Shown here piece after piece: positions 9,392-51,887 of a stretch of 64,000 nt of DNA. How positions within the stretch are numbered: the stretch's first letter is position 1; every line of letters starts with the position of its first letter. Location: NCBI GenBank assembly GCA_041640035.1, contig JBEQBC010000001.1:192001-256000 (forward strand). The letters are read 5' to 3'. Source of the DNA: Candidatus Nanohaloarchaea archaeon (GTDB lineage: Archaea; Nanohalarchaeota; Nanosalinia; Nanosalinales; Nanosalinaceae). The position numbers were made by a program, and so were the translations under genes. Below the pieces are notes generated by a model. That model searched no databases and had not been told where the DNA came from. It saw nothing but the letters and a program-made list of their open reading frames with translations.

Positions 9392-9441
9392 AGGATGACC
9401 GGAAGAATTAAAAAATTCTCTTTTACCTTTCTACTATACAA

Positions 9442-9480
9442 ATGAACGGTGGCTGTGTCCCTCGGTTACAGAACTTCTGA
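9442..9480 (+). CDS. Putative leader peptide MNGGCVPRLQNF (first uORF of proS leader)
   Basis: ATG..TGA read by hand; GG-x-VP motif shared with next uORF; GGCTGTG/CACAGCC stem (9451-9497) followed by a T-run. Confidence 0.4.
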   Translation: MNGGCVPRLQNF

Positions 9481-9529
9481 AAAAGAGTTTCACAGCCGTT
9501 TTTCTACCCGAATTTTCGAGGTATTTTCT

Positions 9530-9577
9530 ATGAACTATTCAACGAAGGGTGGACGCGTTCCACTCACGACTAACTGA
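9530..9577 (+). CDS. Putative leader peptide MNYSTKGGRVPLTTN (second uORF of proS leader)
   Basis: SD-like GAGGT upstream; contains GGTGGACGCGTTC; 8-bp hairpin ACTGAGTC/GACTCAGT over the stop. Confidence 0.55.
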   Translation: MNYSTKGGRVPLTTN

Positions 9578-9643
9578 GTCAAAAACGGACTCAGTCAAAC
9601 AGGTTTCAAAATCTGAAATAAATTTCTCCGGCGGTGAGCTTCT

Positions 9644-10849
9644 GTGAAACGAAGCCAGCTGTTCGCAACAATATCCAAGGAGGAGCAGTCAGGTCTAGAC
9701 TGTCGCAGCGCCGAACTGATGGTGAAAGCCGGACTGGTGAAAAACTTCGGCACCGGCACATGGAGCTACACACATCTAGGTGAAAAAGTACTCGAAAACC
9801 TGGAATCGATCATCAGGGAACAGATGGATGACATCGGTCAGGAGGTCCGGATGAACCAGTTACAGACCTCAGAGATCTGGAAGGAAAGCGGCAGATGGCA
9901 GAACTTCGAGGGAGAAGAGTTCTTCAACTTCAAGAACCGTGACGACAAGGACTTCACCATCTCCGCAACCCATGAAGAAGCAGCAACAGAACTCGCCAAG
10001 GACTACATCCGTAGTTACAGAGACCTTGACCTCACGATCTATCAGATAGGCAGGAAGTACAGGGACGACCATGCAAGAAAGGGCTTACTGAGAGCGAAAG
10101 AGTTCATTATGAAAGATGCCTACAGCTTCCACAGAGATCAGGAATCACTTGACCAGAAATACAACAAGTTCATCGAATCCTACACACGGATCTTCGAAAA
10201 GATGGGATTAGAATTCTCCAGGGTAGAAGCTGATAACGGATCGATGGGAGGCAACCGTTCCCATGAATTCATGGCAGAGTCTGAGGTCGGAAGCGACACC
10301 TACCTCAAATGCACGAACCAGGAATGCCGATACGCCTCCAAAGACATGGAAGTAGACAAATGTGAAGAATGTGGATCAGATCTCAGAAAGGTTAACGGTA
10401 TCGAGATAGGTCACTGCTTCCAGTTACAGCACCGGTACAGTGAAGCCATGGATCTAACATTCACAGATCAGAATGGAGAGGAACAAAATGTACTCATGGC
10501 ATCATACGGTATCGGTGTATCCCGCCTGATCTCAGCTATCATCGAACAAAACAACGATGAAAGCGGTATCACCTGGAATCGAAAAGTCTCAGCCTTCACT
10601 ACAGCCGTGATTGTAGCAGGTGAGGAAAAAGAACTGGTGGAAAAAGCTGATGAAGTTCAGGAAGCATTGGATGAAGAAGCTCTAATCTTTGATGGTGATA
10701 GATCTGTTGGAGAGAAGTTTGCTGAAGCCGACCTGATAGGTGTGAACAGGAAAGTTATCCTAGGTAACAACTACCTCGAAACAGGCAAGATCGAGGTAGA
10801 GACTAGGTCTGGAGAAACCACGGAGGTGGAGAAAGCCACGGATCTATAA
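9644..10849 (+). CDS. proS: Prolyl-tRNA synthetase, bacterial-type, short form without full editing insertion
   Basis: ESGRW, THEE, YQIGRKYRD, GLLRAKEFIMKDAYSF, GIEIGHCFQL, MASYGIGVSR, ADLIG; GTG start with SD GGCGGTGA. Confidence 0.9.
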   Translation: MKRSQLFATISKEEQSGLDCRSAELMVKAGLVKNFGTGTWSYTHLGEKVLENLESIIREQMDDIGQEVRMNQLQTSEIWKESGRWQNFEGEEFFNFKNRDDKDFTISATHEEAATELAKDYIRSYRDLDLTIYQIGRKYRDDHARKGLLRAKEFIMKDAYSFHRDQESLDQKYNKFIESYTRIFEKMGLEFSRVEADNGSMGGNRSHEFMAESEVGSDTYLKCTNQECRYASKDMEVDKCEECGSDLRKVNGIEIGHCFQLQHRYSEAMDLTFTDQNGEEQNVLMASYGIGVSRLISAIIEQNNDESGITWNRKVSAFTTAVIVAGEEKELVEKADEVQEALDEEALIFDGDRSVGEKFAEADLIGVNRKVILGNNYLETGKIEVETRSGETTEVEKATDL

Positions 10850-10912
10850 CCTCAATTTCTTACATTTCTTCTTCCGTTTAGTTTAAAGTATTTCTTCAGT
10901 ACATCTACAGAT

Positions 10913-11686
10913 ATGGCGATGAAGTCCGCTAAAACTATACTTGAAGATATGATTGAAAAGGGAAGTCATGAGATCGATAGAGATGCAGACGGACTTTTCC
11001 TATCCAGCCTCTCGGCAGGCCTGGATATCGGATTCGGACCACTTCTTATGGGAGTAATACTAACTCTGGCAACAACAGGATACGGAAACCTGGGTACAGA
11101 ACTGCTACTGGCTTCCGCCTATTCAGTAGGATTCATATTCGTTATATTAGGCCGTTCAGAACTTTTCACCGAACATACCACTTTAGCGGTGATGCCGGTG
11201 ATAGACGGCAAATCATCACTGAAACAACTGGCAAGACTTTGGGGAATAGTTTACGCAGGGAATATAATCGGCGGTATAATCTTCACAGGTCTTGCAGTAC
11301 TGTTGATGCCGGGACTGGGAGTTATCGAGCAGGCAGCTTTCGGAACAATCGCGGACAAGCTGATCAGTCACCCTGTTCACTGGCTTCTGATAGCAGGGAT
11401 CTTCGCAGGCTGGCTGATGGGGCTCCTAGCATGGCTTGTAACCTCAGCAGAAAACACGATAGGCAGAGTATTCTTCATCTGGATGGTTACAGCAACTATC
11501 GGAATGCTTCACCTACCTCACAGCATTGCAGGAAATGTAGAAGTCCTCCTAGGATTATTCACCTCCTCGGTAACCGTCATGGAGTACATTACATTCCTAT
11601 CGGTATCAACAGTAGGTAATGCAATCGGAGGAGCATTCTTCGTAGCCTTGATGAAGTACGGACATGTAACAAGAGGCGGAAAATAA
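10913..11686 (+). CDS. Formate/nitrite transporter family protein
   Basis: SELFTE, GNIIGG, HSIA, GNAIGG motifs; multiple TM helices. Confidence 0.85.
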   Translation: MAMKSAKTILEDMIEKGSHEIDRDADGLFLSSLSAGLDIGFGPLLMGVILTLATTGYGNLGTELLLASAYSVGFIFVILGRSELFTEHTTLAVMPVIDGKSSLKQLARLWGIVYAGNIIGGIIFTGLAVLLMPGLGVIEQAAFGTIADKLISHPVHWLLIAGIFAGWLMGLLAWLVTSAENTIGRVFFIWMVTATIGMLHLPHSIAGNVEVLLGLFTSSVTVMEYITFLSVSTVGNAIGGAFFVALMKYGHVTRGGK

Positions 11687-11715
11687 AAAACAGAGACTAG
11701 GTAAAATTTCCTTAT

Positions 11716-12324
11716 ATGGACTTCAGGGAACTGGCTTCGTGGCTTGAAGAACTGGATAGTTCTGTTGATCTTGAGGAGAAGTTAGCTCTTGTTTTCCTGC
11801 TTACTGATGTCAAGCCCGGTGTGGTTCTGATGGGTGTCAGCAAAGGTTCGAATATCTACGATTTTGCTGAAGAGTTTGATCTCAAAGTCCTGCATGTTGA
11901 TGGGGAGGACCGCTCACTTCTGAACCGTTTACTCGGCAGAGACAACCGTTTCCAGAAAGACACGGTATTTCTTGCGGAAGACGGACAGAGATTCGAAGTA
12001 CTTGAAGACGAAGAACCAGGTTTCGCCGGCTTCACAGATGAATCCGTAGGAGAGTTTCTGGGCTATCCTGAAAGCTCGCTGGAGTACTATGGCTCTGTAG
12101 AGGCACCGGGACATGATTTCCGTGAAAAGATAGAAGATCTGGATTTCAGTGAAGAGCAGCTGAAGTACCTGAACCTTGTCTTCTATGTACCGGCTCCAGA
12201 GGAGGAGCAAGTTGAGGAAGCAATCCAGGAAGGAAAGAGAAGAGCTGAAAAACTAGAGGATTTATCTGATGAGACCAATGTGGATCTGTTTGATGAGTAC
12301 AGGGAGAGAGTTTTGAGTGACTGA
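11716..12324 (+). CDS. Hypothetical protein, paralog of 48739..49353
   Basis: Shared VGxFLG(Y/F)PE and YVPxPEE motifs. Confidence 0.7.
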   Translation: MDFRELASWLEELDSSVDLEEKLALVFLLTDVKPGVVLMGVSKGSNIYDFAEEFDLKVLHVDGEDRSLLNRLLGRDNRFQKDTVFLAEDGQRFEVLEDEEPGFAGFTDESVGEFLGYPESSLEYYGSVEAPGHDFREKIEDLDFSEEQLKYLNLVFYVPAPEEEQVEEAIQEGKRRAEKLEDLSDETNVDLFDEYRERVLSD

Positions 12325-12381
12325 AGTTACTTTCAAAACAGTTCACGGGGAAAACGGTTACAGAGGTATTCAAAAAATACT

Positions 12382-13860
12382 ATGTCACAGGAACTCGGAA
12401 TAACGGTCAAGAAAGACCAGGACCCTTCTGAATGGTACACACAGGTAGTCAAAAAAGCAGATCTAGCGGATTATGCACCGGTCAAAGGATGCATGGTCAT
12501 CAAACCGTACGGAATGAAACTATGGGAATCAATTAAAGAGGACTTCGACTCCAAGATACAGGACACAGGAGTTGACAACGCATACTTCCCATTATTCATA
12601 CCGGAAAGCTACCTTGAGAAAGAAAGCGATATTGTAGAAGGATTTGATCCCGAAGTTGCCTGGGTAACTCACGGCGGTAACAAAGAATTGGAAGAACGCC
12701 TGGCTGTACGCCCAACAAGCGAGTCAATCATCGCACCTTTCATGAGCGACTGGATCCGCAGCCATCGAGACCTTCCCATGAGGCTTAATCAATGGGCGAA
12801 TGTGGTTCGATGGGAGGCAACCGACACAAGGCCGTTCCTCCGTACCAGAGAATTCCTCTGGCAGGAAGGGCATACTGCTCACGCGTCCGAGGAAGGTGCT
12901 GACGAGGAGACAATGCTACGGCTTGAACAGTACCGAGAAGTAATCGAAGACCACCTCGCAATCCCATCAATTCTAGGATACAAGCCAGAGCACGACAAGT
13001 TCCCTGGAGCAAAATATACTACAACTATCGAAACCCTGATGCCGGACGGAAAAAGCATCCAGTCAGGAACAAGTCATCAATTAGGTCAGCACTTTGCAGA
13101 AGCCTTCGATATAACATACGAGGGAAGAGATAGCAACGAGAACACTGCATGGACCACAAGCTGGGGACTATCCACCCGTACAATCGGAGCACTCATCATG
13201 GCGCATGGAGACGATGACGGTCTTCGACTCCCTCCAAGCATCGCACCAAAACAGGTCGTAGTAGTACCTATCTTCCAGGAGGACAACAAGGAGGAAGTAA
13301 TGGATTATGCGGAAGAAGTCTCAGATAGTCTTGAAGAACAGGGTGTTCGTGTGGAGTTTGATTACAGAGAGCATCGTACCCCTGGCTACAAGTTCAATGA
13401 GTGGGAGCTGAAGGGAGTGCCTCTCAGGGTAGAGGTCGGACCGAACGAGATGGAAGATGAAGCAGTTACAACTGTGAGACGAGACACCGGAGACAAGGAG
13501 ATGGGTCTCGATCGTGAAGAGTTCATAGAAACTGCAGAAGAAACTCTCGACGACATCCAGGAGTCAATGTACAACGAACTGGAAGAATACCTTGAAGAAA
13601 ACATTCGAGAAGCAGAATCTAAAAACGAGATCCTTGCCACCATCGGCAAGAACCGGGGATATGTCAAAACCCGATGGTGCGGAGACGAAGAATGCGAAGA
13701 AGAAATCAAAGACGAAGTCAGTGCGGAGATCGTCGTACTACCATTCCAGGAAGACTCCAAACCAGCCACCATCCAGGATGAGGATGAAGAGATCGACGGC
13801 GAATGTAGCATCTGCGGAGAAGAAGCAGAACGCTGGGCATACTTCGCAAAGAACTACTGA
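12382..13860 (+). CDS. proS: Prolyl-tRNA synthetase, archaeal/eukaryotic type
   Basis: RPTSES, NQWANVVRWE, PFLRTREFLWQEGHT, SWGLSTR, WELKGVPLR, C-terminal FAKNY. Confidence 0.95.
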   Translation: MSQELGITVKKDQDPSEWYTQVVKKADLADYAPVKGCMVIKPYGMKLWESIKEDFDSKIQDTGVDNAYFPLFIPESYLEKESDIVEGFDPEVAWVTHGGNKELEERLAVRPTSESIIAPFMSDWIRSHRDLPMRLNQWANVVRWEATDTRPFLRTREFLWQEGHTAHASEEGADEETMLRLEQYREVIEDHLAIPSILGYKPEHDKFPGAKYTTTIETLMPDGKSIQSGTSHQLGQHFAEAFDITYEGRDSNENTAWTTSWGLSTRTIGALIMAHGDDDGLRLPPSIAPKQVVVVPIFQEDNKEEVMDYAEEVSDSLEEQGVRVEFDYREHRTPGYKFNEWELKGVPLRVEVGPNEMEDEAVTTVRRDTGDKEMGLDREEFIETAEETLDDIQESMYNELEEYLEENIREAESKNEILATIGKNRGYVKTRWCGDEECEEEIKDEVSAEIVVLPFQEDSKPATIQDEDEEIDGECSICGEEAERWAYFAKNY

Positions 13861-13902
13861 ATTTCGATATATTTTTTATTCTTTTCTTCTATCAATAGCC
13901 TA

Positions 13903-15474
13903 ATGGAGCTAGGAGAGAAATTGGATGTGCGTTTGGCTTGGAATAAGACCAAATTTGCTTATGGAGATCGTTCATTTGTTGATAGCCCTTATTTTGTAGA
14001 TTTGTTGAACGAAAATCGAGGTGAGTGGTTATCTCGCGTAGAAGAAGACTTAAATCAAGGTTATAATACGAACAATTCTAGAATTGCTGATATGCCTAAA
14101 GGAAATTTCCATGTGCGTCCTGTCTCTATATTAAAAATTTCTGACTCTTTAATTTACTCTGCTCTTTTAGTTGAGTTACATGAGGATATTGCTGAAACAA
14201 TTAGTTGGTCGGAGGGAATCTATAGATATTCGCATATATTAAAACAAGATATAGAGGACAAGAAATGGCTTGAATACTATTATGATTATTGGCAAAGTTG
14301 GAATGATAAATCTCGCCGATTGATATCTGAGGATTATAACTATGTGGTTTTCAGTGATGTAGCTGGTTTTTATGAGAATATTTCAATTAAACGGTTAATT
14401 TCAGATCTTAGGCAAATATCAGATAAGGATGAGGTTATTAACCAGCTGAGAGATTGTCTCCAAACTTGGGCAGAGCCTAGAAACTCTGGAATTCCGCAAG
14501 GTTATTATCCTTCGGATATACTCGCCGAAGTATATCATAACTCTATAGATAAACGGCTTAGTAATAATGGATATAAGTTCCTGAGATACAATGATGATTT
14601 GAGAATATTTACGGAGACCAAAGAGGAGGCAAAATTAGCTCTCAAATATTTATCTAACTTATATAGGGAGAAAGGCCTTAATTTGCATTCTGCGAAGACT
14701 TCTATTCTGGCAAAAAATAAAGCTGAGAAAAGAATAGATGAAGTGGATGACAATATTAAGAAAATCCAGGAAGCTCAGGAAGCGACAGAAATTGACTGGG
14801 ATGCTGAATGGGAAGAAGTCATTAGTTATGGGGATGAATCTAAGGAGAATGAAGAACGAAAAGAGGATAAGAGACCTAGCCAAGATTTGGTTGAAGATGC
14901 CTTCAAAAAGTTCTATATTGATGACGAAGAGGAGGGCAATAAGCATTTATTCCGGTTCTTGGTTAGCAATCTAGGTTATCACAAGAGCCAAACTGGAGTG
15001 GAATATTGTATAAACCATATTAAGGAGGGGAGGAGAGATATATCAAAAATATTAGAGGGTTATTTTTCTGAGTTAGATAATAAAAAAGATATTGGAGATA
15101 TGCTTGCGGAAATGCTGGCTAATGATGAGCTAATTTACTCTTATCAGACTTATTATATTGTAAGATGGTTATTTGAAGAAGAAATTAGATCTGAAAAAAT
15201 ACTTACTGCTATAAGATCGTGCTTAGATAAAGCTAAGATGCAGGAAACTCGGAATTATTGTATCGCGTATCTTGGTGAGTTTGGAGATAATTCAGATCTT
15301 GATAAAATTCAAAAGGAATATCACGAGGAAATAAGCCCAGTTACTAAATCCATTATTGTTATCGCTCTATATAGAATGGAGAAGTCTCGCAGAAATGCAT
15401 TTTATGGGAGAATAGAAGATGATCATGAATTTGTCCGGTATGCTATCGAAAAAGCTAAAAATAAAAGTCACTAA
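13903..15474 (+). CDS. Reverse transcriptase with C-terminal alpha-helical/HEAT-like repeats (Abi/UG/DRT-like)
   Basis: PK...RP, DVAGFYENI, GIPQG, RYNDD, GLNLHSAKT motifs; AT-rich relative to flanks. Confidence 0.88.
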   Translation: MELGEKLDVRLAWNKTKFAYGDRSFVDSPYFVDLLNENRGEWLSRVEEDLNQGYNTNNSRIADMPKGNFHVRPVSILKISDSLIYSALLVELHEDIAETISWSEGIYRYSHILKQDIEDKKWLEYYYDYWQSWNDKSRRLISEDYNYVVFSDVAGFYENISIKRLISDLRQISDKDEVINQLRDCLQTWAEPRNSGIPQGYYPSDILAEVYHNSIDKRLSNNGYKFLRYNDDLRIFTETKEEAKLALKYLSNLYREKGLNLHSAKTSILAKNKAEKRIDEVDDNIKKIQEAQEATEIDWDAEWEEVISYGDESKENEERKEDKRPSQDLVEDAFKKFYIDDEEEGNKHLFRFLVSNLGYHKSQTGVEYCINHIKEGRRDISKILEGYFSELDNKKDIGDMLAEMLANDELIYSYQTYYIVRWLFEEEIRSEKILTAIRSCLDKAKMQETRNYCIAYLGEFGDNSDLDKIQKEYHEEISPVTKSIIVIALYRMEKSRRNAFYGRIEDDHEFVRYAIEKAKNKSH

Positions 15475-15534
15475 TTTTACCGCTTAACTCTAATTGCTTT
15501 TGATTCTTAAATCTCAGGTCTCATTTACGACTTT

Positions 15535-17858: not shown

Positions 17859-17862
17859 AATT

Positions 17863-19041: not shown

Positions 19042-19110
19042 TATTTTGTCTTAATCACCTGTTGAGAAAGCGGTTCACCCATTTTGGAAATTATAGTTGG
19101 GAAAACCGAT

Positions 19111-26282: not shown

Positions 26283-28013
26283 TCAAACTACTCTCGGACT
26301 AAGTTCCTCCTGAACTTCCGGCGAACCTGAAAGGCGTTCCTCTACATATTCTGCGAAGCCATCCGCGTACTCCGGAGCCATTGCTTCCGCAGTCGCCATC
26401 ACATCATCATCGTAGACCTCTCTGAATACTTCTCCCCAGACCTCTTCATCATCGTAGTCTGGAACTGTTTCGGGATTCGATGGGTCGATACCTTGCTGTT
26501 CCATTGCTTCACGGATCTTATCGCCGTGAGGCATTATCGCAGCTTTCGCGAGTGCTACGCTTGGTTCGTCTTCATAGTTCTGACGGGAGTTTCTGTACTC
26601 GAATCCTCCGGTCTGGAATTTGGGTCTTACATCGTGGTGTAGTCCGCCGATGTGTTGTTCCGAAAAGTTGCCCTTATGATACTCCTTGAGCTCGTCTTCG
26701 CTCATACCTGTTAGATCGACCGTTCCACGGACTCGTTTCAATCCGTCCTCTCCATCTGTGACTATCTTGGTGAAATCTACTTCGCCGTCCTCGATATACT
26801 CTCTCGGCGTCTTTGGATTTTCAGGATCGACTGTCAGCATAGCCACACTTTCATAGTCAAAGTCTTCAGGTACATCGTCCTTGAACTCGACATGTTCTCT
26901 GTCAGGTTTGGCTATCCAAGCCATGTGGTGGCCGGTCATGTACTCATCTACCATTCCTTGGAAGGCATCTCCGTCACTGTCCATAATCGAATCGATGACA
27001 TTCCATGGTGTACCGGTTCTATCAAGCGCTGCCTCATCTACATCGGCATCATCGAGGAAGTGCTGACCATATGCACTGTTCTCCCAGTAGTCCTGGTTAA
27101 CACCGGTTTCCGGCTGTCCCTCATCTTCCTCGCTGTAAACATTAGAGGTCAATACATCGAAAGCTCCTTCAAACACTATCCGGTAAGCCATCTCTTCAGA
27201 CATGCGTTCGTCTACATCGATTTCTCCGTCATCGCTCCAGAGACCGGATGTGAGCTGTGTGGATCCTCCGAACATGTTCTCCATTATCTGAGGTCCGAAG
27301 ATCGTACTGATGTAATCGGCACAGTACTCCACAGAGCTGAAATGATCGTAAAACTCCTCTGAGAACTCTACAGCTTCATCTCGTCCGTATTCGTCTCCTA
27401 AGCCACGCTTGACAACTTCACGGTCACCGATCTCGTCAGGTGTCCTCTCCGGTTCACGGAATTGACGGGTTAAACCTTGATCTGCGAATTCAAGGTCGGG
27501 GTGGTTCTCCTGTATGTATTTTCTCGTTCCTTCTCTCAGGCTTTTCAGTACATCAAGAAGTGTTCCGAAGTTTCCGGAGCCGTCTATCTGGAAGGCACCT
27601 GAGTCTATCTCGATCTGAGGTCCGATCTCCCAGTCTGCTGCTGGAGCACCGATAACCTGATCTGACTCCTGACTTTCTTCAACCTCTATCTCTGCTGGTC
27701 TATCCTCGAAATGACCTTTTTCCTTAACGCCCTTGAGTTCGAAGCTGAATTCTTCTCCGTAGCCGTCTACATTCTCTTCGAGTTCTTCCTCGATGCTCTC
27801 CCAAAGTCCTTCGCTGATTATATCCTGATAATCTGGGGCTAACGGCATAACACCGTCTTCTTCTCTGACTATCGGGTTCTCGCTCTCCACGCCCATGCCG
27901 GTTGGCCCGACATTTTCCTCATAGTTGTCCTTGAATTCCTCTGTGAACTCTTCTACGATTTCATCGTAGTCAAGTTCTGCGGCAGCGGTGGAGGTTTCGC
28001 CTGTTGCTGACAT
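26283..28013 (-). CDS. Divergent glutamate-cysteine-ligase-2 (carboxylate-amine ligase) fold protein
   Basis: MGVESE, PQIEIDS, STQLTSG, HDVRPK...GGFEYR motifs; SD GGAGGT. Confidence 0.65.
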   Translation of the reverse strand: MSATGETSTAAAELDYDEIVEEFTEEFKDNYEENVGPTGMGVESENPIVREEDGVMPLAPDYQDIISEGLWESIEEELEENVDGYGEEFSFELKGVKEKGHFEDRPAEIEVEESQESDQVIGAPAADWEIGPQIEIDSGAFQIDGSGNFGTLLDVLKSLREGTRKYIQENHPDLEFADQGLTRQFREPERTPDEIGDREVVKRGLGDEYGRDEAVEFSEEFYDHFSSVEYCADYISTIFGPQIMENMFGGSTQLTSGLWSDDGEIDVDERMSEEMAYRIVFEGAFDVLTSNVYSEEDEGQPETGVNQDYWENSAYGQHFLDDADVDEAALDRTGTPWNVIDSIMDSDGDAFQGMVDEYMTGHHMAWIAKPDREHVEFKDDVPEDFDYESVAMLTVDPENPKTPREYIEDGEVDFTKIVTDGEDGLKRVRGTVDLTGMSEDELKEYHKGNFSEQHIGGLHHDVRPKFQTGGFEYRNSRQNYEDEPSVALAKAAIMPHGDKIREAMEQQGIDPSNPETVPDYDDEEVWGEVFREVYDDDVMATAEAMAPEYADGFAEYVEERLSGSPEVQEELSPRVV

Positions 28014-28061
28014 CAGGAAGACCTCCGAGAAACAGTTGAATTATTGATTTTAGAAATAGTT

Positions 28062-28127
28062 TTAGAACTGTCCGTAGATGTGGATCTCGTCCTGCAGAAC
28101 GCGTCCACCTGTGATTGCTACTGACAT
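28062..28127 (-). CDS. Putative leader peptide MSVAITGGRVLQDEIHIYGQF
   Basis: Contains GGTGGACGCGTTC (28109-28097); ATG downstream of TTTAAA. Confidence 0.55.
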   Translation of the reverse strand: MSVAITGGRVLQDEIHIYGQF

Positions 28128-28333
28128 ACCATGCCTGTTAGTAACTTAACGGTTTTAAATGTTGTTCAGTTCCACATCTTTTCCAGAGAACCTGCGAGCC
28201 ATCTATATAAATCTAGGTCGAGTATACTTTGGTAGAGCGAGCACGGTCTGTCTAAGCGGATCGTTGTTAGAGAACTGCTCTGAATTTAAGTTTCTGATCT
28301 ATTATACAAACAAAAAATGGAGGATAAAGGATA

Positions 28334-39893: not shown

Positions 39894-40020
39894 GGTCCAT
39901 TAGCTCAGGGGTTAGAGCACCGTCCTTATAAGGACCTCACACAGAAAAAACCTTACTTGATCCTGTGTGTTGCCTCCATAAGAGAGGCGGCGGTCCCGGG
40001 TTCGAATCCCGGATGGACCA
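39894..40020 (+). tRNA. tRNA-Ile(UAU) with 54-nt intron (39931-39984) at 37/38
   Basis: Acceptor GGTCCAT/ATGGACC; anticodon stem CCGTC/GGCGG; loop CT-TAT-A; CTTA/TAAG BHB-type helix; TTCGAAT T-loop. Confidence 0.85.
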
Positions 40021-42306: not shown

Positions 42307-42344
42307 ACAACCGTTGTTATCAACAAGTTATAAAATAATTTTGT

Positions 42345-43322: not shown

Positions 43323-43327
43323 AGATA

Positions 43328-44391: not shown

Positions 44392-44417
44392 ACTTTCAAC
44401 ATGGATTTTACTGGTTT

Positions 44418-45284: not shown

Positions 45285-45303
45285 CGGTCTAACTCACTTC
45301 TCT

Positions 45304-45873
45304 TTACTCTGATTCGCCGGAGAAATCGACTTCAGGAAGCTCACGGTCCGCTGTCTCAATCTGAAGCTGATCCTTCTCGCTGTGGCCGAAAATGTTAGCG
45401 AACACTACTGCCGGGAATGTCTCGATTGCGTTGTTGTATTCAAGTATCGCATCATTGTAGTGCTGTCGTGCGTATGCAACCTTGTTCTCGATGCTTGAGA
45501 GCTCCTGCTGCAGTTCCTTGAAGTTTTCACTTGCCTTTAGGTCAGGATAGTCTTCTGCTACTGCGAAAAGCGATTTCAGTGCTTCTCCCATTTCATCTCC
45601 GGCCTTGGCTTCCTCCTCAGGGCTCTGTGCATTCATTATTTTTTCACGGCTCTCAGAGACCCGGTCCATAACTTCTCTTTCATGCTCCATGTAGCCTTCT
45701 ACAGTTTCCATAAGGTTAGGTATAAGATCGGCTCTTTTCTTCAGTTGGACATCTATTTGGCTCCAGGAGTTATCGATACGGTTTTCTAGAGTAACAAATC
45801 GGTTGTAGTAGTAAACTGTCAGCAGACCTAGAAGGACTACTGCACCTATTCCACCATAAAGTAAAAGAGACAT
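45304..45873 (-). CDS. lemA: LemA family protein
   Basis: QLKKRADLIPNL, AEDYPDLKA. Confidence 0.92.
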   Translation of the reverse strand: MSLLLYGGIGAVVLLGLLTVYYYNRFVTLENRIDNSWSQIDVQLKKRADLIPNLMETVEGYMEHEREVMDRVSESREKIMNAQSPEEEAKAGDEMGEALKSLFAVAEDYPDLKASENFKELQQELSSIENKVAYARQHYNDAILEYNNAIETFPAVVFANIFGHSEKDQLQIETADRELPEVDFSGESE

Positions 45874-45983
45874 AATAAATTTCTTTGCTCTCGCAATCTT
45901 ATAACTTGATTCGATTTAATATGAAGAAGTTGGCCGGAAGAGGGAAAACGATTATAATATATTAGTTCAATTATCTAATTACA

Positions 45984-46034
45984 ATGATTTCCGTCCTTAG
46001 AACTCAGGGTGGACGCGTTCTGGAGCATCAATAA
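45984..46034 (+). CDS. Putative leader peptide MISVLRTQGGRVLEHQ
   Basis: Contains GGTGGACGCGTTC (46008-46020); ATG downstream of an AT-rich TATA-like stretch. Confidence 0.55.
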   Translation: MISVLRTQGGRVLEHQ

Positions 46035-46094
46035 TAGCTTCCAGAATAAAATAATTTCTAAAATCTCTAACTATCCGTTCGCAGGTGTTTTCCT

Positions 46095-46775
46095 GTGACT
46101 CAGGTGCTTTCTGACTGGGAGGTAAGCGTTGTTGACGCAACCTTGGAATGGCCTCGTTACAGCAACCGGTTCAATGAGCTTTTGGGCGATGATATCAAGA
46201 AGTACAAGGCGATGAAACATGAGTTTCCGGAAGATCCGGAAGTAGTAATTATCTCAGGCTCAACCTCCGGAATCTACGAGGACGAGGAATGGATCGACGC
46301 ATTAGTGGAGAAGACTCGGGAATACATCGAGAACGATGTACCCGTGCTTGGCCTCTGCTTCGGTCATCAGGTGATTGCCAAGGCGATGGGTGCTGAAGTC
46401 GTTCAGATGGATGAGTATGAAATCGGTTACCGGCCTGTAGAGTTGGGAGAAAGCGAGATATTTGAAGGACTGGACTCTGTGGAGTACCCGTTCAACACGC
46501 ATCAGGATAAAGTGATTGACTTACCGGACGACTTGGAGACTATCGCTGAAACTGATGTATCCGTTCAGGGCATTCAGCATAGTAAGAAGAAGGTTTATGG
46601 TGTTCAGTTCCATCCGGAGTTGACGCCGCCCATCAAGGAGAAAGCGATCCGGACGAAGGATATGCCTGAGGCTAAGAAAGAGAGACTTTTGAGAGAAGTG
46701 AATGATGCGAACTTTGATCGTGCGAAACGGGTTCTCAGGATATTCGAGAACTTTCAGAACATTTTAGTCAATTAA
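46095..46775 (+). CDS. Class I glutamine amidotransferase-like protein
   Basis: GLCFGHQ, QFHPE catalytic motifs. Confidence 0.9.
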   Translation: MTQVLSDWEVSVVDATLEWPRYSNRFNELLGDDIKKYKAMKHEFPEDPEVVIISGSTSGIYEDEEWIDALVEKTREYIENDVPVLGLCFGHQVIAKAMGAEVVQMDEYEIGYRPVELGESEIFEGLDSVEYPFNTHQDKVIDLPDDLETIAETDVSVQGIQHSKKKVYGVQFHPELTPPIKEKAIRTKDMPEAKKERLLREVNDANFDRAKRVLRIFENFQNILVN

Positions 46776-46809
46776 AGACTAAAATCTTTTTTTCTCTACT
46801 TTTTATTCG

Positions 46810-47208
46810 TTATTCGCTGCTCGCTGGGCCTATGGAGTGATGGCTTTGGTGTAGTGAAGCTCCTTCTAGGTCAGTTATGTTCATTTCGACCCGTACTAGT
46901 TGATCGGGGTCTGCTTCGACTAGAACGGTGATTGGCTGGTTCTTGGAGACGCCGTCTATTCTACGGTTCTCTATTGATTCTCTTACTTCTCCGTTAACTG
47001 AGATGTTGTAGGTGGCCAGTACATTGATTGTTTCGTTGCTGTTCGGTATGTACAGGAATTCTGCGTCACCGTCTGCGTAACTGGATACTTCAACATTAAA
47101 TCCTGGATCAGGATCTGTTTCAACCTGTGTAGGATCAAGTACCAGTATAGCGCCGGTAACTAGGAGAAGGGGTACACCGGTCGCGAACGCAGCATCTCGA
47201 ATGTTCAT
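46810..47208 (-). CDS. Membrane-anchored hypothetical protein
   Basis: N-terminal TM helix. Confidence 0.55.
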   Translation of the reverse strand: MNIRDAAFATGVPLLLVTGAILVLDPTQVETDPDPGFNVEVSSYADGDAEFLYIPNSNETINVLATYNISVNGEVRESIENRRIDGVSKNQPITVLVEADPDQLVRVEMNITDLEGASLHQSHHSIGPASSE

Positions 47209-47254
47209 AACTACTGTTGAGACACAAAAAGTAAAATAGTTGATGGAGAGGTGG

Positions 47255-48019
47255 TTATCCTAACTCCATATCTCCCAGTTTGTCTCTTCTGTAAAGATCG
47301 AGTTCCGCGACTGTGTTGTTCTGATCCTGTCTTGCAGCAAACACTATTCCATCAGCGATCTGTTCAGGCTCGGTAACGGATCCTTCTTCGAACTCTTCCT
47401 TGAAAGCTGTTCCTTCCTCTGAGTTGAACTCTGTGCGGACTTCAGATGGATTTACTACGGTTACTGCTACTCCTTCGTCACCTATTTGGCTTGAAAGGCT
47501 TCTGGCGAATCCTCTTGTCCACCATTTTGAAGCTGCGTATACAGGGTTGACTCCTCGTGGATACTGGCCAGCGATGCTTCCCAGGAAGATCAGGTTACCC
47601 TGTGTTTCTTTCAGATACCTGATTGATTCCCGTGCTACATAGAACATTCCGTCGAGATTGACCGAGTTCGTTTTCTCATAGTGGTCGGTCGGCATATCTT
47701 CGACTTCGCCACTGTATACTAGTCCTGCGTTGCTGACTACTATATCTATCTGTCCGAAGACTTCTTCTGTTTTATTAAACAGGTTTTCTACCTGTTCTTC
47801 ACTAGTTACATCTGTTGATACCACAAGTGTTTCCACGCCGTGTTCTGATTCGATTTTATCTGCTGTTTCCTGTAGTTCCTCTTTACTTCGTGAAGCCAGT
47901 ACGATTTTGGCTTTTTCCTCTGCGAGTCTGTGTGCCGTTGCTTTTCCTATTCCGGAGGACGCACCGGTTATTACCGCGGTATTATCTTCTAGTTCTTGCA
48001 TAGTTTTTACCTCTACCAT
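47255..48019 (-). CDS. SDR oxidoreductase
   Basis: TGASSGIG, NAG, YAASK. Confidence 0.93.
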   Translation of the reverse strand: MVEVKTMQELEDNTAVITGASSGIGKATAHRLAEEKAKIVLASRSKEELQETADKIESEHGVETLVVSTDVTSEEQVENLFNKTEEVFGQIDIVVSNAGLVYSGEVEDMPTDHYEKTNSVNLDGMFYVARESIRYLKETQGNLIFLGSIAGQYPRGVNPVYAASKWWTRGFARSLSSQIGDEGVAVTVVNPSEVRTEFNSEEGTAFKEEFEEGSVTEPEQIADGIVFAARQDQNNTVAELDLYRRDKLGDMELG

Positions 48020-48103
48020 TACAGTGTTGAATGGTTTGATTTATCATCTGGCTGGACGGCCGGATGTAATCGTTAAAAGACTTCGAGTCGGAAATCTGAT
48101 TAT

Positions 48104-48736
48104 ATGAGTTTGAAACTCCTCGTGACCAGTGACTTCCACGCTGATGAAGAACTGAAGGAAGCCGCCGTAGAAGAAGCTAACAGCGGTGATTACGACCTTT
48201 TCATCAACCTGGGAGACTACATGGGATTTGATTATGCGGAAGACATGTTTGACCGTATCGATATCCCGGCGATAGGTACTACAGGTAACCGTGACTCGAT
48301 GGATAAAGACCGTTTCGAGGAAAGCAGCGTACCTGTATACAAGTTCCTGGAAGCAAATGTTGACGACGACTACCTTGTAATACTGATCGGAGGAAGCTTC
48401 CCGGATGATATCAAGGATCAGGTGAATGAGATAATTGAGGAGCACGGAGACCCTGAAAAAGTTATAATCGGATCACATTATCCGCCGAAAAAGCTTCAGG
48501 ACACGATTAGTTCAGGTCGACATATAGGTTTCGATCAGTTCCGTGAAATCATTATGCGGAAGAAGCCAGCTATCTGGATGTCGGGACATGTACATGAAGA
48601 CTACGGTAGAGATTCCCTGTTTAATACTGAGATAATAAACGCGGCCTCAGAAGAAACTGGCAAAGGCTACAAGGTAGTGATGTCCGATGAAGGCGGTGTT
48701 GAAAGTATTGAAGAAGTAGTTCTGGTCGAAGAATAG
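48104..48736 (+). CDS. Metallophosphoesterase
   Basis: SDFH, GD, GNRD, GHVHE. Confidence 0.88.
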   Translation: MSLKLLVTSDFHADEELKEAAVEEANSGDYDLFINLGDYMGFDYAEDMFDRIDIPAIGTTGNRDSMDKDRFEESSVPVYKFLEANVDDDYLVILIGGSFPDDIKDQVNEIIEEHGDPEKVIIGSHYPPKKLQDTISSGRHIGFDQFREIIMRKKPAIWMSGHVHEDYGRDSLFNTEIINAASEETGKGYKVVMSDEGGVESIEEVVLVEE

Positions 48737-48738
48737 CT

Positions 48739-49353
48739 TCAGAGGTTATTCAGGTATCTTTTAAGAACCTCTTTTCCTACATCTAGTTGATGTTTTTCAT
48801 CGAACTTTTCCACGGCTTTAACGTACTCTGATCCTTTATCTACACATCTCTTGATATTGTCCTCTTCTGGTTTCGGTACATAGCTTGCGACTTCTAGGTA
48901 TTTCATGCTTCCCTGACCTATTTTCCTTTCCGATATCATTTGCTTTGTTTTTTCTCGTGCTTCAGGTTCTATCTGTCCGTCCTTTATGTTTTCGCTGAAA
49001 TACTTAGCATCCTCCTCAGGAAAGCCCAGAAACTTTCCTACATTTATATCGGTGTAGCCGCAGAAACGGCCGTTTTGCTTCTCCAGCAACTTCATCCGGT
49101 TTTTCTCATGGGTGATGAATACTGAAGTAGTGCTCAGCCGGGATTCACCTTCTTCAATTCTGTAGTAGAGATTGTAATCTTTGCAGAACTGTTTGATCTT
49201 CTCTATCTCTTTTTCTTCAAGGTTCATTATCAGGCAGGCCGGTCTCTTATCTATGAACATCAGGAAGAGGTCGAGCACATCTCGGTAAGGAAGTTCTTCC
49301 AGAAAGTAACTGAAGTATTCCTGGATTTTGTCTTCCTGTTCTATTTCTGTCAT
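48739..49353 (-). CDS. Hypothetical protein, paralog of 11716..12324
   Basis: VGKFLGFPE and YVPKPEE motifs. Confidence 0.7.
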   Translation of the reverse strand: MTEIEQEDKIQEYFSYFLEELPYRDVLDLFLMFIDKRPACLIMNLEEKEIEKIKQFCKDYNLYYRIEEGESRLSTTSVFITHEKNRMKLLEKQNGRFCGYTDINVGKFLGFPEEDAKYFSENIKDGQIEPEAREKTKQMISERKIGQGSMKYLEVASYVPKPEEDNIKRCVDKGSEYVKAVEKFDEKHQLDVGKEVLKRYLNNL

Positions 49354-49470
49354 ATATCTGATAGGTTTCAGTGAATGGTTAATGCTTTTTCCGTTTAACT
49401 CTCTTTCAGACCTGTTTCTTGGTTTCGATTATCGAAAAATCTATTAACATGTGATGGGGATTTACTGGTT

Positions 49471-49872
49471 ATGGATGAGGTTGATCAGAGGATAATTGAA
49501 ATTCTGGAGGAGGATGCCCGTGCATCTTTTACTGATATTGCTGAAGAGGTTGGTGTCTCTGAAGGCACGGTCAGGAACCGTGTGGAGTCGATGGAAGAAA
49601 ATGATGTTATAGATAAGTATACTGTTGAACTGGGCGCTGGTAGCAGTATATCGGCTTTTATATCTGTGAAGGTTTCTGCTGATAGATCGTTCGATCAGAT
49701 AACTTCCAATTTTCCACAAGAACTCGAAGTGTACGAACTTGCTGGAGATATCGATATACTGATTAAGGTACGGAGAGATTCAGCGGAGCAGGTTAACGAA
49801 CTTGTGGATGAAATCAGAGCTATAGAGGGAGTTAACTCCACTCAGACATACATGGTTCTGGCGGAAAAATAA
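49471..49872 (+). CDS. Lrp/AsnC transcriptional regulator
   Basis: MDEVDQRII...IAEEVGVSEGTVRNRV HTH plus RAM domain. Confidence 0.92.
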   Translation: MDEVDQRIIEILEEDARASFTDIAEEVGVSEGTVRNRVESMEENDVIDKYTVELGAGSSISAFISVKVSADRSFDQITSNFPQELEVYELAGDIDILIKVRRDSAEQVNELVDEIRAIEGVNSTQTYMVLAEK

Positions 49873-49900
49873 ATGTGGAAAAACCGGTAATTTCGGGTGT

Positions 49901-50209
49901 TTAAATTGCTTCTTCGGTTAGTAGATTGTAGAGTTCTTCGCTGCTCTCCGGAAGAGCTTCGTAAGGGTTTTCTGATTCCACATAGGTCTCATGTTCTATG
50001 CCTTCTGGTCCTCTTACCTGTACATGATAGCTCTCATCTCTTTCAGTAACTGTTACATCGTACTCCTCGTCCAGTTCCAGAGTACCGCGTGCTTGATGGT
50101 ACTCTCCGTGGAGAACTCCTTGTAGCCGTTCAAAGCTTACATCATCGACAGTGCTGAGTGCCATTTCTACTCCGAAGTCTGAATTTGAGTTACCTGTTGT
50201 TACGCTCAT
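49901..50209 (-). CDS. Acidic hypothetical protein
   Basis: ORF with genome-typical acidic composition. Confidence 0.5.
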   Translation of the reverse strand: MSVTTGNSNSDFGVEMALSTVDDVSFERLQGVLHGEYHQARGTLELDEEYDVTVTERDESYHVQVRGPEGIEHETYVESENPYEALPESSEELYNLLTEEAI

Positions 50210-50357
50210 TATGGGATCACAGTATAAATAATACGAAAAAACCTTATAAAATTATGATATTCGAAGTAATATTTGTATATCACTTATCTAATTATGTTGA
50301 AAGTTCTTTTTATCGAAAGGAACTTAAAGTATTGCATTAAATTATTGTTTCGTACCA

Positions 50358-50417
50358 ATGACTGGTGACCGTTTTAAGATCGGACACATTTACGCAAACT
50401 ACTCAAAATCTTTCTAA
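50358..50417 (+). CDS. Putative leader peptide MTGDRFKIGHIYANYSKSF upstream of lysS
   Basis: TGDRFK resembles TGGRVL/GGRVP; HIY and terminal F shared with 28062..28127. Confidence 0.5.
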   Translation: MTGDRFKIGHIYANYSKSF

Positions 50418-50447
50418 CAGCCGTAGCTATACCCAAGGTGTTCTTCC

Positions 50448-51887
50448 ATGAGCTCAGAACAGGAAGAACGCGAGGAACTTATCTCCCAACTCCGTGAAAA
50501 CGGTGAAGAACCGTTCCCGCATAACTTCTCCCGAACACATACCGTGGAGGAATTAAACCGCCAGAGAGGAACAGATGAACAGGAACTACCTAGTCAAGAA
50601 TTCAGTACAGCAGGTAGAATCATGGAGATCCGTGACTTCGGAGGAATAGCCTTCCTGGACCTGAGAGGAGAAAGAGAAGAAATACAGATAGTCCTAAGAA
50701 AAGAAGAACACCTTGAAACACTGGAAAACCTTCACAGCGGTGATATAGCAGGAGTTACAGGTGACCTAACCTACACGGATAAAGGAGAGTTCTCACTGGA
50801 GGCTGACGAGCTGGAGCTTTTGACAAAAGCAGTGAAACCTGTTCCTTCAAGCTACTACGGACTTGAAGATCAGGAAACACAGTACCGTCAGCGCTCACTA
50901 CACCTAATCGACAGCATCGACGCACGAGAATCATTCAGAAATCGCAGCAGGATAATCAGCGAAATGCGAAGATTCCTTGAGGAAGATGGTTTTATGGAAG
51001 TAGAAACACCTGTCATCCAACCTGTGTACGGTGGAGCAAACGCAAGGCCTTTCACAACTCATGTGAACGACAAAGACATGGAAGCCTACCTCCGTATAGC
51101 ACCTGAGCTGTACCTGAAAAGACTGATCATCGGCGGTTACGAAAAAGTGTTCGAGATAGGGAAAAACTTCAGGAACGAGTCAATAGATACAACTCACAAC
51201 CCTGAATACACAGCGATGGAGCTCTACCAGGCATACGCCGACTACGAGGATATGATGCAGATAACCGAGGAACTCGTCGAACACATCACAGAAGAAGTTA
51301 CCGGTGATACAGTGATCGAATACCAGGGAGTAGAACTTGATATGTCAGCTCCATGGAAAAGGATGACAATGAGAGAAGCCATCCTCGAGTACGGAGGCTT
51401 CGATGTAGAAAACCTTGGAGACGATGAGATCAGAGATAAAATGATTGAATATGGAGCGGAGCTTGAATCCGAATATGAGCGAGGGCTAGCTATCGCCGAA
51501 CTATTCGAGGAAGTAGCAGAGGAAGAACTTGTTCAGCCCACATTCATAACTGACTATCCCCGTGAAACCACTCCGCTCTGCAAACTTCACAGAGAAAACG
51601 AAGACCTGATCGAACGTTTTGAAGCCTTCGCAGCAGGAATGGAGCTGGCCAACGCCTACACCGAGCTCAGAGATCCTATCCAGCAGGAACAACATTTCAG
51701 AGAGGAACAGCAGAGAGCCGAACAAGGAGATGAAGAAGCCCACGAGATGGATGAAGACTTTGTAGAAGCGCTGCGCCACGGAATGCCTCCTACCGGAGGA
51801 CTCGGAATCGGAGTAGACAGACTCGTCATGCTTCTAACCGACTCAGAGTCAATAAGAGATGTCATCCTCTTCCCCATGATGAAGTAG
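50448..51887 (+). CDS. lysS: Lysyl-tRNA synthetase, class II
   Basis: LRIAPELYLKRL, FRNE, HNPEYT, GMPPTGGLGIGVDR. Confidence 0.96.
   Translation: MSSEQEEREELISQLRENGEEPFPHNFSRTHTVEELNRQRGTDEQELPSQEFSTAGRIMEIRDFGGIAFLDLRGEREEIQIVLRKEEHLETLENLHSGDIAGVTGDLTYTDKGEFSLEADELELLTKAVKPVPSSYYGLEDQETQYRQRSLHLIDSIDARESFRNRSRIISEMRRFLEEDGFMEVETPVIQPVYGGANARPFTTHVNDKDMEAYLRIAPELYLKRLIIGGYEKVFEIGKNFRNESIDTTHNPEYTAMELYQAYADYEDMMQITEELVEHITEEVTGDTVIEYQGVELDMSAPWKRMTMREAILEYGGFDVENLGDDEIRDKMIEYGAELESEYERGLAIAELFEEVAEEELVQPTFITDYPRETTPLCKLHRENEDLIERFEAFAAGMELANAYTELRDPIQQEQHFREEQQRAEQGDEEAHEMDEDFVEALRHGMPPTGGLGIGVDRLVMLLTDSESIRDVILFPMMK

Follow-up and report, generated by a model that had tools for sequence, protein, structure and literature searches.

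Introduction

T-boxes and leader-peptide attenuators are bacterial systems, and we know of little that is established on how archaea match the expression of synthetases and amino-acid pathways to amino-acid supply. Here, we analyze a 64,000-nt stretch (the window) of the 978,572-base genome of a Candidatus Nanohaloarchaea archaeon (G000), in which short upstream open reading frames (uORFs) precede the genes of a bacterial-type ProRS (proS), a LysRS (lysS), a class-I glutamine amidotransferase (GATase) and a 576-amino-acid (aa) protein. Each sensor ORF begins with ATG (frame 1) and contains a 12-nt motif directly followed by the sensor codon X, so that it reads G-[G/E/D]-x-[V/F/I/P]-X. A second ORF runs from a GTG inside the motif and overlaps the first in the +1 frame. 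We observe a conserved architecture, a cognate rule for X, phasing to the ATG, coupling of the +1 frame to the main gene and a re-pairing rule at the codon before X, which together point to an amino-acid-specific translational sensor before synthetase and amino-acid-biosynthesis genes. It looks like a new archaeal way of sensing amino-acid supply. Numbered labels denote loci of relatives (L), genomes (G), contigs (C) and families of the order (f).

The bacterial gene prfB (RF2) is autoregulated by a +1 programmed frameshift, which uses a Shine-Dalgarno (SD)-like element, a codon in the ribosomal peptidyl (P) site that can re-pair, and a slow stop codon in the aminoacyl (A) site. The archaeal sensor resembles prfB: the 0-frame ORF is short and closes a little way past the site, an SD-like pairing lies a few nucleotides behind the P-site codon, this codon can re-pair in the +1 frame, and the A-site codon would be slow when the product of the regulated pathway is scarce. 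In contrast to the stop codon of prfB, the slow codon here is a sense codon, for at least 11 amino acids. The shift of prfB occurs inside the regulated gene, whereas here it would occur in the leader, and the main gene would be reached by termination-reinitiation except in fused variants. The sensor is also archaeal and would sit on a leaderless mRNA, and its frameshift is a proposed one. SD-like stimulators of frameshifting are mentioned in general terms in passages of a 2021 review (PMC8211752), which also present the antizyme +1 frameshift as a metabolite sensor. Antizyme shares this regulatory use of a +1 frameshift, but it is eukaryotic, has a stop codon in the A site, senses polyamines, and its product is the regulated protein itself.

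Leader-peptide attenuation (trp, his, leu, pheST) is alike in that the speed of the ribosome at amino-acid codons sets expression. Its nearest analogue in logic, also leaderless, is provided by the mycobacterial poly-Cys short ORFs (10.1101/834739). The archaeal sensor differs from leader peptides in using a single codon in fixed register behind a conserved 12-nt motif instead of a codon run, in its overlapping +1 ORF on the main start, and in serving many amino acids with one module; no terminator/antiterminator pair was found in the leaders examined below. With T-boxes, it shares an amino-acid-specific triplet that controls synthetase or amino-acid genes and a GGGUGG-like string. Unlike T-boxes, the leaders are about 90–170 nt long without a Stem I, their triplet lies in an ATG-phased frame, position 6 is mostly A, and they match no Rfam model. 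Termination-reinitiation, treated for bacterial leader genes in PMC4833913, is resembled by a +1 stop on or near the main start and an SD-like GGTG 8–11 nt upstream; the upstream partner here, however, is not a gene but a relay ORF, which would be entered only from inside the sensor ORF.

Our literature searches found no published archaeal counterpart of the sensor. In the passages of Atkins et al. 2016 (PMC5009743) that concern hungry codons, no examples are known of hungry-codon frameshifting used for starvation-specific products. The corresponding passages of the 2021 review (PMC8211752) give one programmed −1 frameshift as the only one reported in archaeal cells.

Results

The sensor codon matches the downstream gene

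The initial annotation had proposed a uORF regulon that senses amino acids or tRNA charging, with a variable codon matching the downstream synthetase. The genome and its relatives support this proposal. In G000, seven synthetases have a sensor directly upstream: two tandem Pro sensors precede ProRS, and single sensors precede LysRS (AAG), GlyRS (GGA), ValRS (GTA), ThrRS (ACC), SerRS (TCT) and CysRS (TGT). Two His sensors head a tight same-strand row of genes encoding an AbrB-like protein, a 221-aa protein, a 270-aa protein and HisRS, and two Trp sensors head a row of overlapping genes for a GNAT-like protein, an M20 protein, an enolase-like protein and TrpRS. No sensor lies directly upstream of IleRS, LeuRS, archaeal-type ProRS, AspRS, TyrRS, GluRS, ArgRS or PheRS-alpha in G000, and a MetRS-like ORF was not evaluable.

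The covariation of X with synthetase specificity was followed in orthologs from at most the best 30 loci per search. A sensor-bearing locus is defined as one whose +1 ORF stops within −12 to +14 of the main start. One ThrRS locus at a contig start (L125), and two GlyRS loci (L169, L172) and one SerRS locus (L190) with short upstream sequence, were left out. Enzyme identities derive from NCBIfam and Pfam matches. Among the matches listed, the four families give:

ThrRS: 29 loci, 21 with sensor; X cognate in 21/21 (ACC 12, ACT 9)
LysRS: 17 loci, 9 with sensor; X cognate in 9/9 (AAG)
GlyRS: 28 loci, 26 with sensor; X cognate in 26/26 (GGA 25, GGG 1)
SerRS: 28 loci, 22 with sensor; X cognate in 22/22 (TCT 10, TCC 12)

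X is therefore cognate in all 78 sensor-bearing loci, and no non-cognate coupled sensor occurs among them. The amino acid is kept while synonymous codons alternate, and the short conserved ORF with its regulating codon extends to about ten further gene families. In other genera of the family, we find HisRS with His, TyrRS with Tyr, HisG with His, 2-isopropylmalate synthase with two Leu sensors, and archaeal-type ProRS with Pro. A Pro sensor also precedes a P5C-reductase/amino-acid-kinase (ProC/ProB) ORF, with a masked stretch in between. In 11 leaders with the canonical motif, Pro is kept as CCA, CCG or CCT, while the +1-frame residue varies among His, Arg and Leu. In other families of the order, eight of nine fetched loci are cognate: four ThrRS (one of archaeal type with an editing domain), three SerRS and one CysRS. 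The sensed amino acids number at least 11.

The ninth fetched locus, L214 (G028:C11), reads MKGGIF followed by TAA at X, and lies before a 481-aa ORF without a Pfam match. This stop codon could be a chance occurrence or a release-factor-type sensor.

Several observations weigh against the sensor explanation. Sensors are absent, among the matches listed, from 8/29 ThrRS, 7/17 LysRS (9/17 being sensor-bearing in the list above), 2/28 GlyRS and 6/28 SerRS loci; these sensor-less loci mostly sit directly behind another gene. Leaders with X = Leu often precede genes without a known leucine link, namely GATase, the 576-aa protein and small acidic proteins. The X codons are not rare and show no trend to rarity, GGA and CTG being the commonest for their amino acids, so slow decoding of X would have to come from starvation. 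Finally, orthologs are not independent, and the counts overstate the number of independent events; the independent gene families number about a dozen. Even so, the finding of a cognate sensor codon, placed in a leaderless uORF and coupled to the main gene, is genuine and has overwhelming statistics behind it, and we consider a cognate-codon sensor of some kind highly probable.

The Leu sensors form a large leader class of their own (L019-L033, L049, L050, L076-L082, L090-L094), often with a preceding same-frame Ile-type copy (GG[RC]F-I). Their +1 ORF of 28–60 aa is Ser-rich and ends in a run of Leu codons (LLLLL*), after which a conserved AAGGCGGAGCGG-like string follows. A small acidic protein of no known family begins about 100–145 nt downstream of this +1 ORF. 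The codon run may act as a second, run-of-codons stage.

The +1 frame links the sensor to the main gene

The +1 frame is open from the GTG of the motif (G|GTG), and in the window its stop codon falls on the main start as GTGA (proS, GATase), TGATG (576-aa gene) or ATGA (lysS). Among the matches listed, the 78 ortholog sensors have their +1 stop between −9 and +11 of the main start, and the same region is reached by frame 1 in 0/78 and by frame 3 in 11/78. Frame 1 stops 3–32 codons after X. The 0 frame thus closes soon while the +1 frame stays open to a functional end point, as at +1 frameshift sites, and the stop overlaps or abuts the downstream start both in the window and in relatives, as in termination-reinitiation.

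Some loci have the +1 frame fused directly to the protein, as in a GATase (L005), AbrB-like proteins and a GNAT-like protein. In others, two sensors for the same amino acid form a cascade, frame 1 of sensor b being the same as the +1 frame of sensor a (proS 9449-9577, L045, L071, L075, L080 and the His leader on contig C6). The variation after X shows no codon-position periodicity in either frame of the Gly, Ser, Thr and Lys leaders, and could not tell which frame is under peptide selection.

We notice that AbrB/SpoVT-like proteins of 78–86 aa begin in the +1 frame of a sensor (VDAFTF..DSKGRVTVP) in G000 (C6:15111-15452, minus strand), L032, L051, L053 and L059. The gene at C6:15111-15452 (minus strand) opens the G000 row that ends in HisRS. 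A DNA-binding regulator may hence be made under sensor control.

Sensor loci of the window

An identical 13-mer had been noted in three intergenic leaders, and its coordinates are confirmed. The exact GGTGGACGCGTTC occurs at 9548-9560 (+), 46008-46020 (+) and 28097-28109 (−), all intergenic. Allowing up to two mismatches adds no window site (0.61 expected), and three sites are reached in 1/100 shuffles; the whole 978,572-base genome contains exactly these three copies. The four short ORFs also read as first described, at 9530-9577 (MNYSTKGGRVPLTTN), 45984-46034 (MISVLRTQGGRVLEHQ), 28127-28062 (MSVAITGGRVLQDEIHIYGQF) and 50358-50417 (MTGDRFKIGHIYANYSKSF), and both the motif-to-start distances of 84–96 nt and the TC(T)AAAATC element are found in the leaders. 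To these we add a fifth sensor ORF upstream of proS and the +1-frame ORFs at 9549-9647, 46009-46098, 28108-28013 and 50365-50451.

At proS, the features are:

9408-9415, plus strand: TATA-like box TTAAAAAA, 27–34 nt ahead of sensor ORF a; putative promoter for a leaderless mRNA
9442-9480, plus strand: sensor ORF a, MNGGCV-P-RLQNF (MNGGCVPRLQNF); motif 9448-9459 (GGTGGCTGTGTC), X = CCT (Pro) at 9460-9462
9449-9577, plus strand: +1-frame ORF of sensor a, which runs in frame into sensor ORF b as a two-step cascade
9530-9577, plus strand: sensor ORF b, MNYSTKGGRV-P-LTTN; motif 9548-9559, X = CCA (Pro) at 9560-9562
9549-9647, plus strand: +1-frame ORF (GTG...; VDAFHSRLTESKTDSVKQVSKSEINFSGGELL); its TGA (9645-9647) overlaps the start GTG (9644-9646)
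9574-9594, plus strand: leader hairpin CUGAGUC/GACUCAG, containing the frame-1 stop codon
9604-9613, plus strand: second conserved element TTTCAAAATC, matching the YY[ACT]AAAAYC class
9633-9636, plus strand: SD-like GGTG, 8–11 nt before the proS start
9644-10849, plus strand: bacterial-type ProRS, 401 aa, the regulated gene (TIGR00409 399 bits against a cut-off of 306.7; Pfam)

At the 576-aa gene, they are:

28153-28160, minus strand: TATA box ATTTAAAA, 26–33 nt before the sensor ORF
28062-28127, minus strand: sensor ORF MSVAITGGRV-L-QDEIHIYGQF; motif 28109-28098, X = CTG (Leu) at 28097-28095
28013-28108, minus strand: +1-frame ORF (VDAFCRTRSTSTDSSKTISKINNSTVSRRSS), whose TGA overlaps the gene's ATG (TGATG)
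28046-28056, minus strand: second conserved element TTTCTAAAATC, YY[ACT]AAAAYC class
26283-28013, minus strand: 576-aa protein, the regulated gene, to which Pfam, NCBIfam and PDB assign no family

At the GATase gene, they are:

45952-45961, plus strand: TATA box TTATAATATA, 23–32 nt before the sensor ORF
45984-46034, plus strand: sensor ORF MISVLRTQGGRV-L-EHQ; motif 46008-46019, X = CTG (Leu) at 46020-46022
46009-46098, plus strand: +1-frame ORF (VDAFWSINNSFQNKIISKISNYPFAGVFL), whose TGA overlaps the start GTG (GTGA)
46019-46045, plus strand: hairpin directly after X, with compensatory changes in orthologs (CTGGAG/CTCCAG, CTGGTG/CACCGG, CTGGCA/TGCCAG)
46055-46065, plus strand: second conserved element TTTCTAAAATC, YY[ACT]AAAAYC class
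46084-46087, plus strand: SD-like GGTG, predicted to pair with the start-codon region in a small hairpin
46095-46775, plus strand: class-I glutamine amidotransferase, 226 aa, the regulated gene (Pfam GATase 97.8 bits)

At lysS, they are:

50323-50332, plus strand: TATA-like CTTAAAGTAT, 26–35 nt before the sensor ORF
50358-50417, plus strand: sensor ORF MTGDRF-K-IGHIYANYSKSF; motif 50364-50375 (GGTGACCGTTTT), X = AAG (Lys) at 50376-50378
50365-50451, plus strand: +1-frame ORF (VTVLRSDTFTQTTQNLSNSRSYTQGVLP), whose TGA overlaps the lysS ATG (ATGA)
50402-50410, plus strand: second conserved element CTCAAAATC, YY[ACT]AAAAYC class
50448-51887, plus strand: class-II LysRS, 479 aa, the regulated gene (NF001756 632 bits; TIGR00499 568 bits)

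The sensors of all four loci recur in relatives. Tandem upstream Pro sensors occur in the ProRS leaders L024, L044 and L045, X = Leu is retained as CTG or CTA in the orthologous leaders of the 576-aa gene (L039, L043, L063, L085), the GATase sensor ORF and motif are kept in six orthologous leaders, and M-x-G-[GED]-[RCY]-F-K is present in 9/17 LysRS loci. The downstream assignments to a bacterial-type proS, lysS and GATase hold, the NCBIfam matches of the GATase all being under their cut-offs. The label of a GCS2-fold ligase for the 576-aa gene is no more than a weak lead: its protein has no match among Pfam, NCBIfam or PDB sequences, and the weak leads, from the Atlas, point to GCS2 and COOH-NH2 ligases (scores 0.86–0.87). 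The described in-frame alignment of uORF and main gene stems from the ATGA or GTGA overlap between the +1 ORF and the main start; it is not general, as the spread of +1 stops in relatives illustrates.

Two ProRS genes lie 1.5 kb apart in the window, the bacterial-type gene at 9644-10849 and an archaeal-type gene at 12382-13860 (492 aa, TIGR00408, 582 bits), and a sensor precedes the bacterial-type gene only. The model match of the 401-aa enzyme is split in two, and it apparently lacks the insertion/editing domain. In two other genera, an X = Pro leader precedes an archaeal-type ProRS (L037) or the ProC/ProB-like ORF (L057). The relatives search for the ProRS returned bacterial proteins at 32–47% identity and one same-genus contig (L223) at 69%. 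The public record of L223 is titled as a marine gamma-proteobacterium and looks like a mislabelled genome bin.

The motif is phased to the ATG and widespread in the lineage

The pattern GGTGGAYGCGTT has 80 matches in 40/50 family genomes, compared with 1 for the reversed pattern. We fetched 77 distinct instances. An in-frame ATG within 20 codons upstream and without an intervening stop is present in frame 1 in 56/77, and in the other frames in 7 and 4. Instances without such an ATG are mostly coding coincidences, for example the internal V-D-A-F of aEF-2-like ORFs. Both the ATG and its frame are thus conserved in orthologous leaders, as the initial annotation would predict. A minimal form, ATGAARGGTGRNNNNTTT, has 90 matches in 48/70 phylum genomes against 3 control matches; it occurs in four of five families, with none in the single f2 genome (61% complete). 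The search patterns required GTG, a purine (R) at position 5 and either NTY or CCY at positions 10–12, and therefore miss exceptions outside them; one, GCG as the codon before X in L208, was spotted by eye. A filter of pattern, ATG and TATA alone is unspecific (13 matches in G000 and 8 in its reversed sequence), and sensor specificity rests on intergenic position, coupling and cognate codon combined.

The same observations bear on the possibility that a transcription factor binds the motif as DNA, upstream of promoters, and that the ORFs are there by coincidence. Identical nucleotides across unrelated genes, a TATA-like element downstream of the motif and the palindromic ACGCGT of canonical copies would suit such a site. 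A transcription-factor operator is expected to be strand-independent and unphased; the motif, however, always lies on the coding strand and is phase-locked to an ATG at leaderless-start distance. The palindrome is not conserved, and the supposed role of ACGCGT has no support, as positions 7–9 vary freely as Y-R-Y. Moreover, the codon next to the motif follows the amino acid of the gene and varies synonymously, and an open +1 frame reaching the start codon would be unneeded. We regard this explanation as very unlikely.

In G000, a Trp-sensor operon lies divergent to GlyRS (C2:62945-64633), and the arrangement recurs in f3 and f4 (L303, L304, L306), where GlyRS is of another type without a sensor of its own. 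The GlyRS of four other families is of a different type and has no sensor; at a fifth locus, L305, the upstream sequence was too short for a call.

Promoters, leaderless starts and a second element

In G000, 568 upstream regions show TATA-like hexamers most often at −35 to −26 from the start codon, so its mRNAs are expected to be mostly leaderless. SD use appears genome-wide as a weaker GGTG signal at −15 to −11. The ATGs of the window sensor ORFs carry TATA-like boxes at the leaderless distance, and in relatives a consensus TATA (TTTATAAA or TTTAAAA) lies 22–26 nt upstream of the sensor ATG. These positions suggest that the sensor mRNA begins at the frame-1 ATG.

Meanwhile, 67/100 coupled leaders carry the second element, YY[ACT]AAAAYC, between −37 and −56 relative to the main start, against about 1 expected. 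It resembles the TATA boxes of the lineage and may serve as an internal basal promoter or act in the RNA. The GlyRS leaders have a strong TATAAAAAT 22 nt before the main ATG. On both grounds, the main genes may also have basal promoters of their own, a point against the proposed explanation. That the U-run of the sensor pairs with the A-run of the second element was considered as a general rule and rejected: such pairing is possible in GlyRS leaders, but canonical GUU-type leaders that carry the element show no U-run pairing.

Constraints on the motif and a frameshift model

The suspicion of an RNA-level constraint on the motif proves correct. GGUGR can pair with the 16S 3′ end, which is GGAUCACCUCC in three relatives (the 16S gene is absent from the G000 assembly), and it lies 5 nt before the P-site codon, as an SD-like stimulator of frameshifting does. 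Variants that lose G1 gain pairing at positions 5–7, such as AGUGAUC (CysRS leader) and CGUGGUC (ThrRS leaders). The codon before X depends on the first base of X (X1): GTT stands before X1 = C or T only (57/57), while X1 = A or G always follows TTT, CCC or CCT (56/56). In 129/132 sensors, the +1 codon keeps at least two of three positions, so the P-site codon can re-pair in the new frame, within patterns limited to NTY or CCY at this codon. The constraint is best read as an SD-like GGUGR with a slippery P-site codon, and/or as the GUG start of the overlapping +1 ORF.

On this basis, we propose a hungry-codon mechanism. A leaderless mRNA would begin with the ATG of the short frame-1 ORF, and its ribosome would reach a P-site codon that is GUU, GUC or AUU when a pyrimidine follows, and UUU, CCC or CCU when the next base is a purine. 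When cognate aminoacyl-tRNA is plentiful, X would be decoded, and the ribosome would stay in frame 1 and terminate 3–32 codons on, far from the main gene. When it is scarce, the ribosome would wait with an empty A site and shift by +1, aided by GGUGR, which would pair with the 16S 3′ end at a distance of 5 nt behind the P-site codon, as in bacterial prfB, and by a P-site codon able to re-pair in the new frame. The +1 frame, open up to the main start codon, would stop on it (ATGA, GTGA, TGATG), and the terminating ribosome would reinitiate on the main gene, whose own SD and start may be held in RNA structure otherwise. Tandem sensors would act as AND cascades (proS, His leader) or OR pairs (Ile+Leu leaders). 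Scarce charged tRNA would then yield more synthetase, which is the expected sign of regulation. That either frame is translated, that the mRNA lacks a leader, that the ribosome shifts and in which direction regulation goes are inferred from the nucleotide sequence. The ATG phase-lock, the fixed GGUGR-N4-(P-site codon)-X register, the 16S pairing and the re-pairing rule lead us to this mechanism, and we give a frame change by hungry-codon +1 frameshifting roughly an even chance.

Other properties of the sensor fit the frameshift less well. GTG at motif positions 2–4 is invariant in 132/132 sensors, although the pattern requires it, and the upstream copy of L037 has ATG in place of GTG in the same register; an invariant GTG would suit a start codon no less than an SD-like site. 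At position 6, 124/132 sensors have A, whatever the amino acid, which the frameshift model leaves unexplained, and no model explains why positions 7–9 are almost always Y-R-Y (Arg CGY, Cys UGY, Tyr UAY, His CAY). The variant seen most often has T for C at position 7, a change that is silent in the +1 frame (GAC/GAT) but turns Arg into Cys in frame 1. In the GUU case, the P-site tRNA would re-pair at 2 of 3 positions only. A hairpin at or just after X is conserved, and is too close for a classical downstream stimulator of frameshifting.

Part of these observations would be accounted for by two overlapping uORFs without a frameshift, in which frame 1 senses, the +1 ORF starts at GUG and is coupled to the main gene, and stalling at X alters the use of GUG by occlusion, release or re-initiation after rescue. 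GTG stays invariant while position 1 varies among G, C and A; ATG can replace it, as in L037; V-D-A-F is the natural short N-terminus of the fused AbrB-like proteins; the position-7 variant is silent in the +1 frame; and a hairpin about 10–12 nt after GUG could hold the small subunit over it. On the other hand, a ribosome stalled at X would cover the GUG, so that starvation would lower translation of the +1 ORF, which is the wrong sign. No SD lies at a usable distance before GUG, and many sensors have it 8–48 codons from the 5′ end. Neither the phase-lock of the ATG to frame 1 nor the rule linking the P-site codon to X1 would be explained. We consider initiation at GUG without a frameshift unlikely.

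RNA structure of the leaders

We further examined whether the leaders fold as known regulatory RNAs do. The hairpin at X shows compensatory changes in the GATase and GlyRS leaders. Among five folded leaders, that of GATase is more stable than its shuffles (z = −2.8), with its main SD and start predicted to be paired; three fold no better than shuffles (−0.03, −0.37, +1.10), and one does so weakly (−1.53).

These folds bear on an attenuation-like scheme without a change of frame, in which a ribosome stalled at X holds the hairpin open and the leader refolds, which would expose the main SD and start or change how transcription terminates; the +1 ORF would be secondary. The conserved hairpin and the paired GATase start would agree with it, and its logic is known from bacterial leader peptides and from the mycobacterial leaderless poly-Cys short ORFs (10.1101/834739). 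However, no alternative pairing partner for the post-X hairpin appears in the folds of five leaders, and no terminator-like site is present in the GATase or lysS leader, so that the mutually exclusive hairpins of leader-peptide systems are not seen there. Nor do we find several or tandem regulatory codons: each sensor has one codon in fixed register, although some leaders have two sensors. Attenuation would also leave unexplained the fused and cascade variants and a +1 frame that is open for 25–60 codons and stops on the main start in 78/78, which frame 1 never does. This scheme seems to us improbable, somewhat more so than initiation at GUG.

Kinship with T-boxes, which had been raised for the motif, does not hold up, since no Rfam match appears even at E up to 1–10. 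Over the window, Rfam at gathering score gives tRNAs only; at E up to 1, there is nothing over 45940-50460, and over 9400-9660 two chance-level matches have E values of 2.4 and 6.8. A UGGN bulge covarying with the tRNA discriminator base is not seen, given the nearly constant A at position 6. Readings as C/D-box small RNAs or as miniature inverted-repeat transposable elements were rejected, because the box spacing misfits and the copies share only the motif and the second element.

Two Rfam tRNA matches, at 39894-40020 (127 nt) and 60267-60404 (138 nt), are not called by ARAGORN and are probably intron-containing archaeal tRNAs. tRNA-Ala(GGC) at 52795-52869 is the only window tRNA called by both programs.

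Discussion

Should the frame change come about by hungry-codon frameshifting, an open remark in the recoding field (PMC5009743) would find its answer. The sensor would then provide the first natural case in which hungry frameshifting at a sense codon serves regulation, the first cellular programmed frameshift of the +1 kind among archaea and, for archaeal synthetase genes, the first cis-regulator that senses amino acids.

For genome annotation, the sensor accounts for dozens of conserved 'intergenic' 13-mers, and draws attention to small ORFs with GTG starts and to N-terminal extensions that gene callers will place wrongly. The cassette measures about 20 nt plus the relay ORF, and could serve as a portable amino-acid reporter.

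In its fullest form, our proposal is that a whole archaeal lineage, comprising all five families of the order or phylum that the analysis covered, runs a modular hungry-codon +1 switch, composed of a leaderless ATG, GGUGR, a spacer codon, a slippery codon and X, in which one codon change would set the amino acid and a relay would lead to the cognate gene, sometimes through two sensors in series. We hold this to be quite possible, though slightly short of an even chance. The sensor is a sequence-defined system with a one-codon specificity code, conserved in a lineage of about 1-Mb genomes with few regulators.

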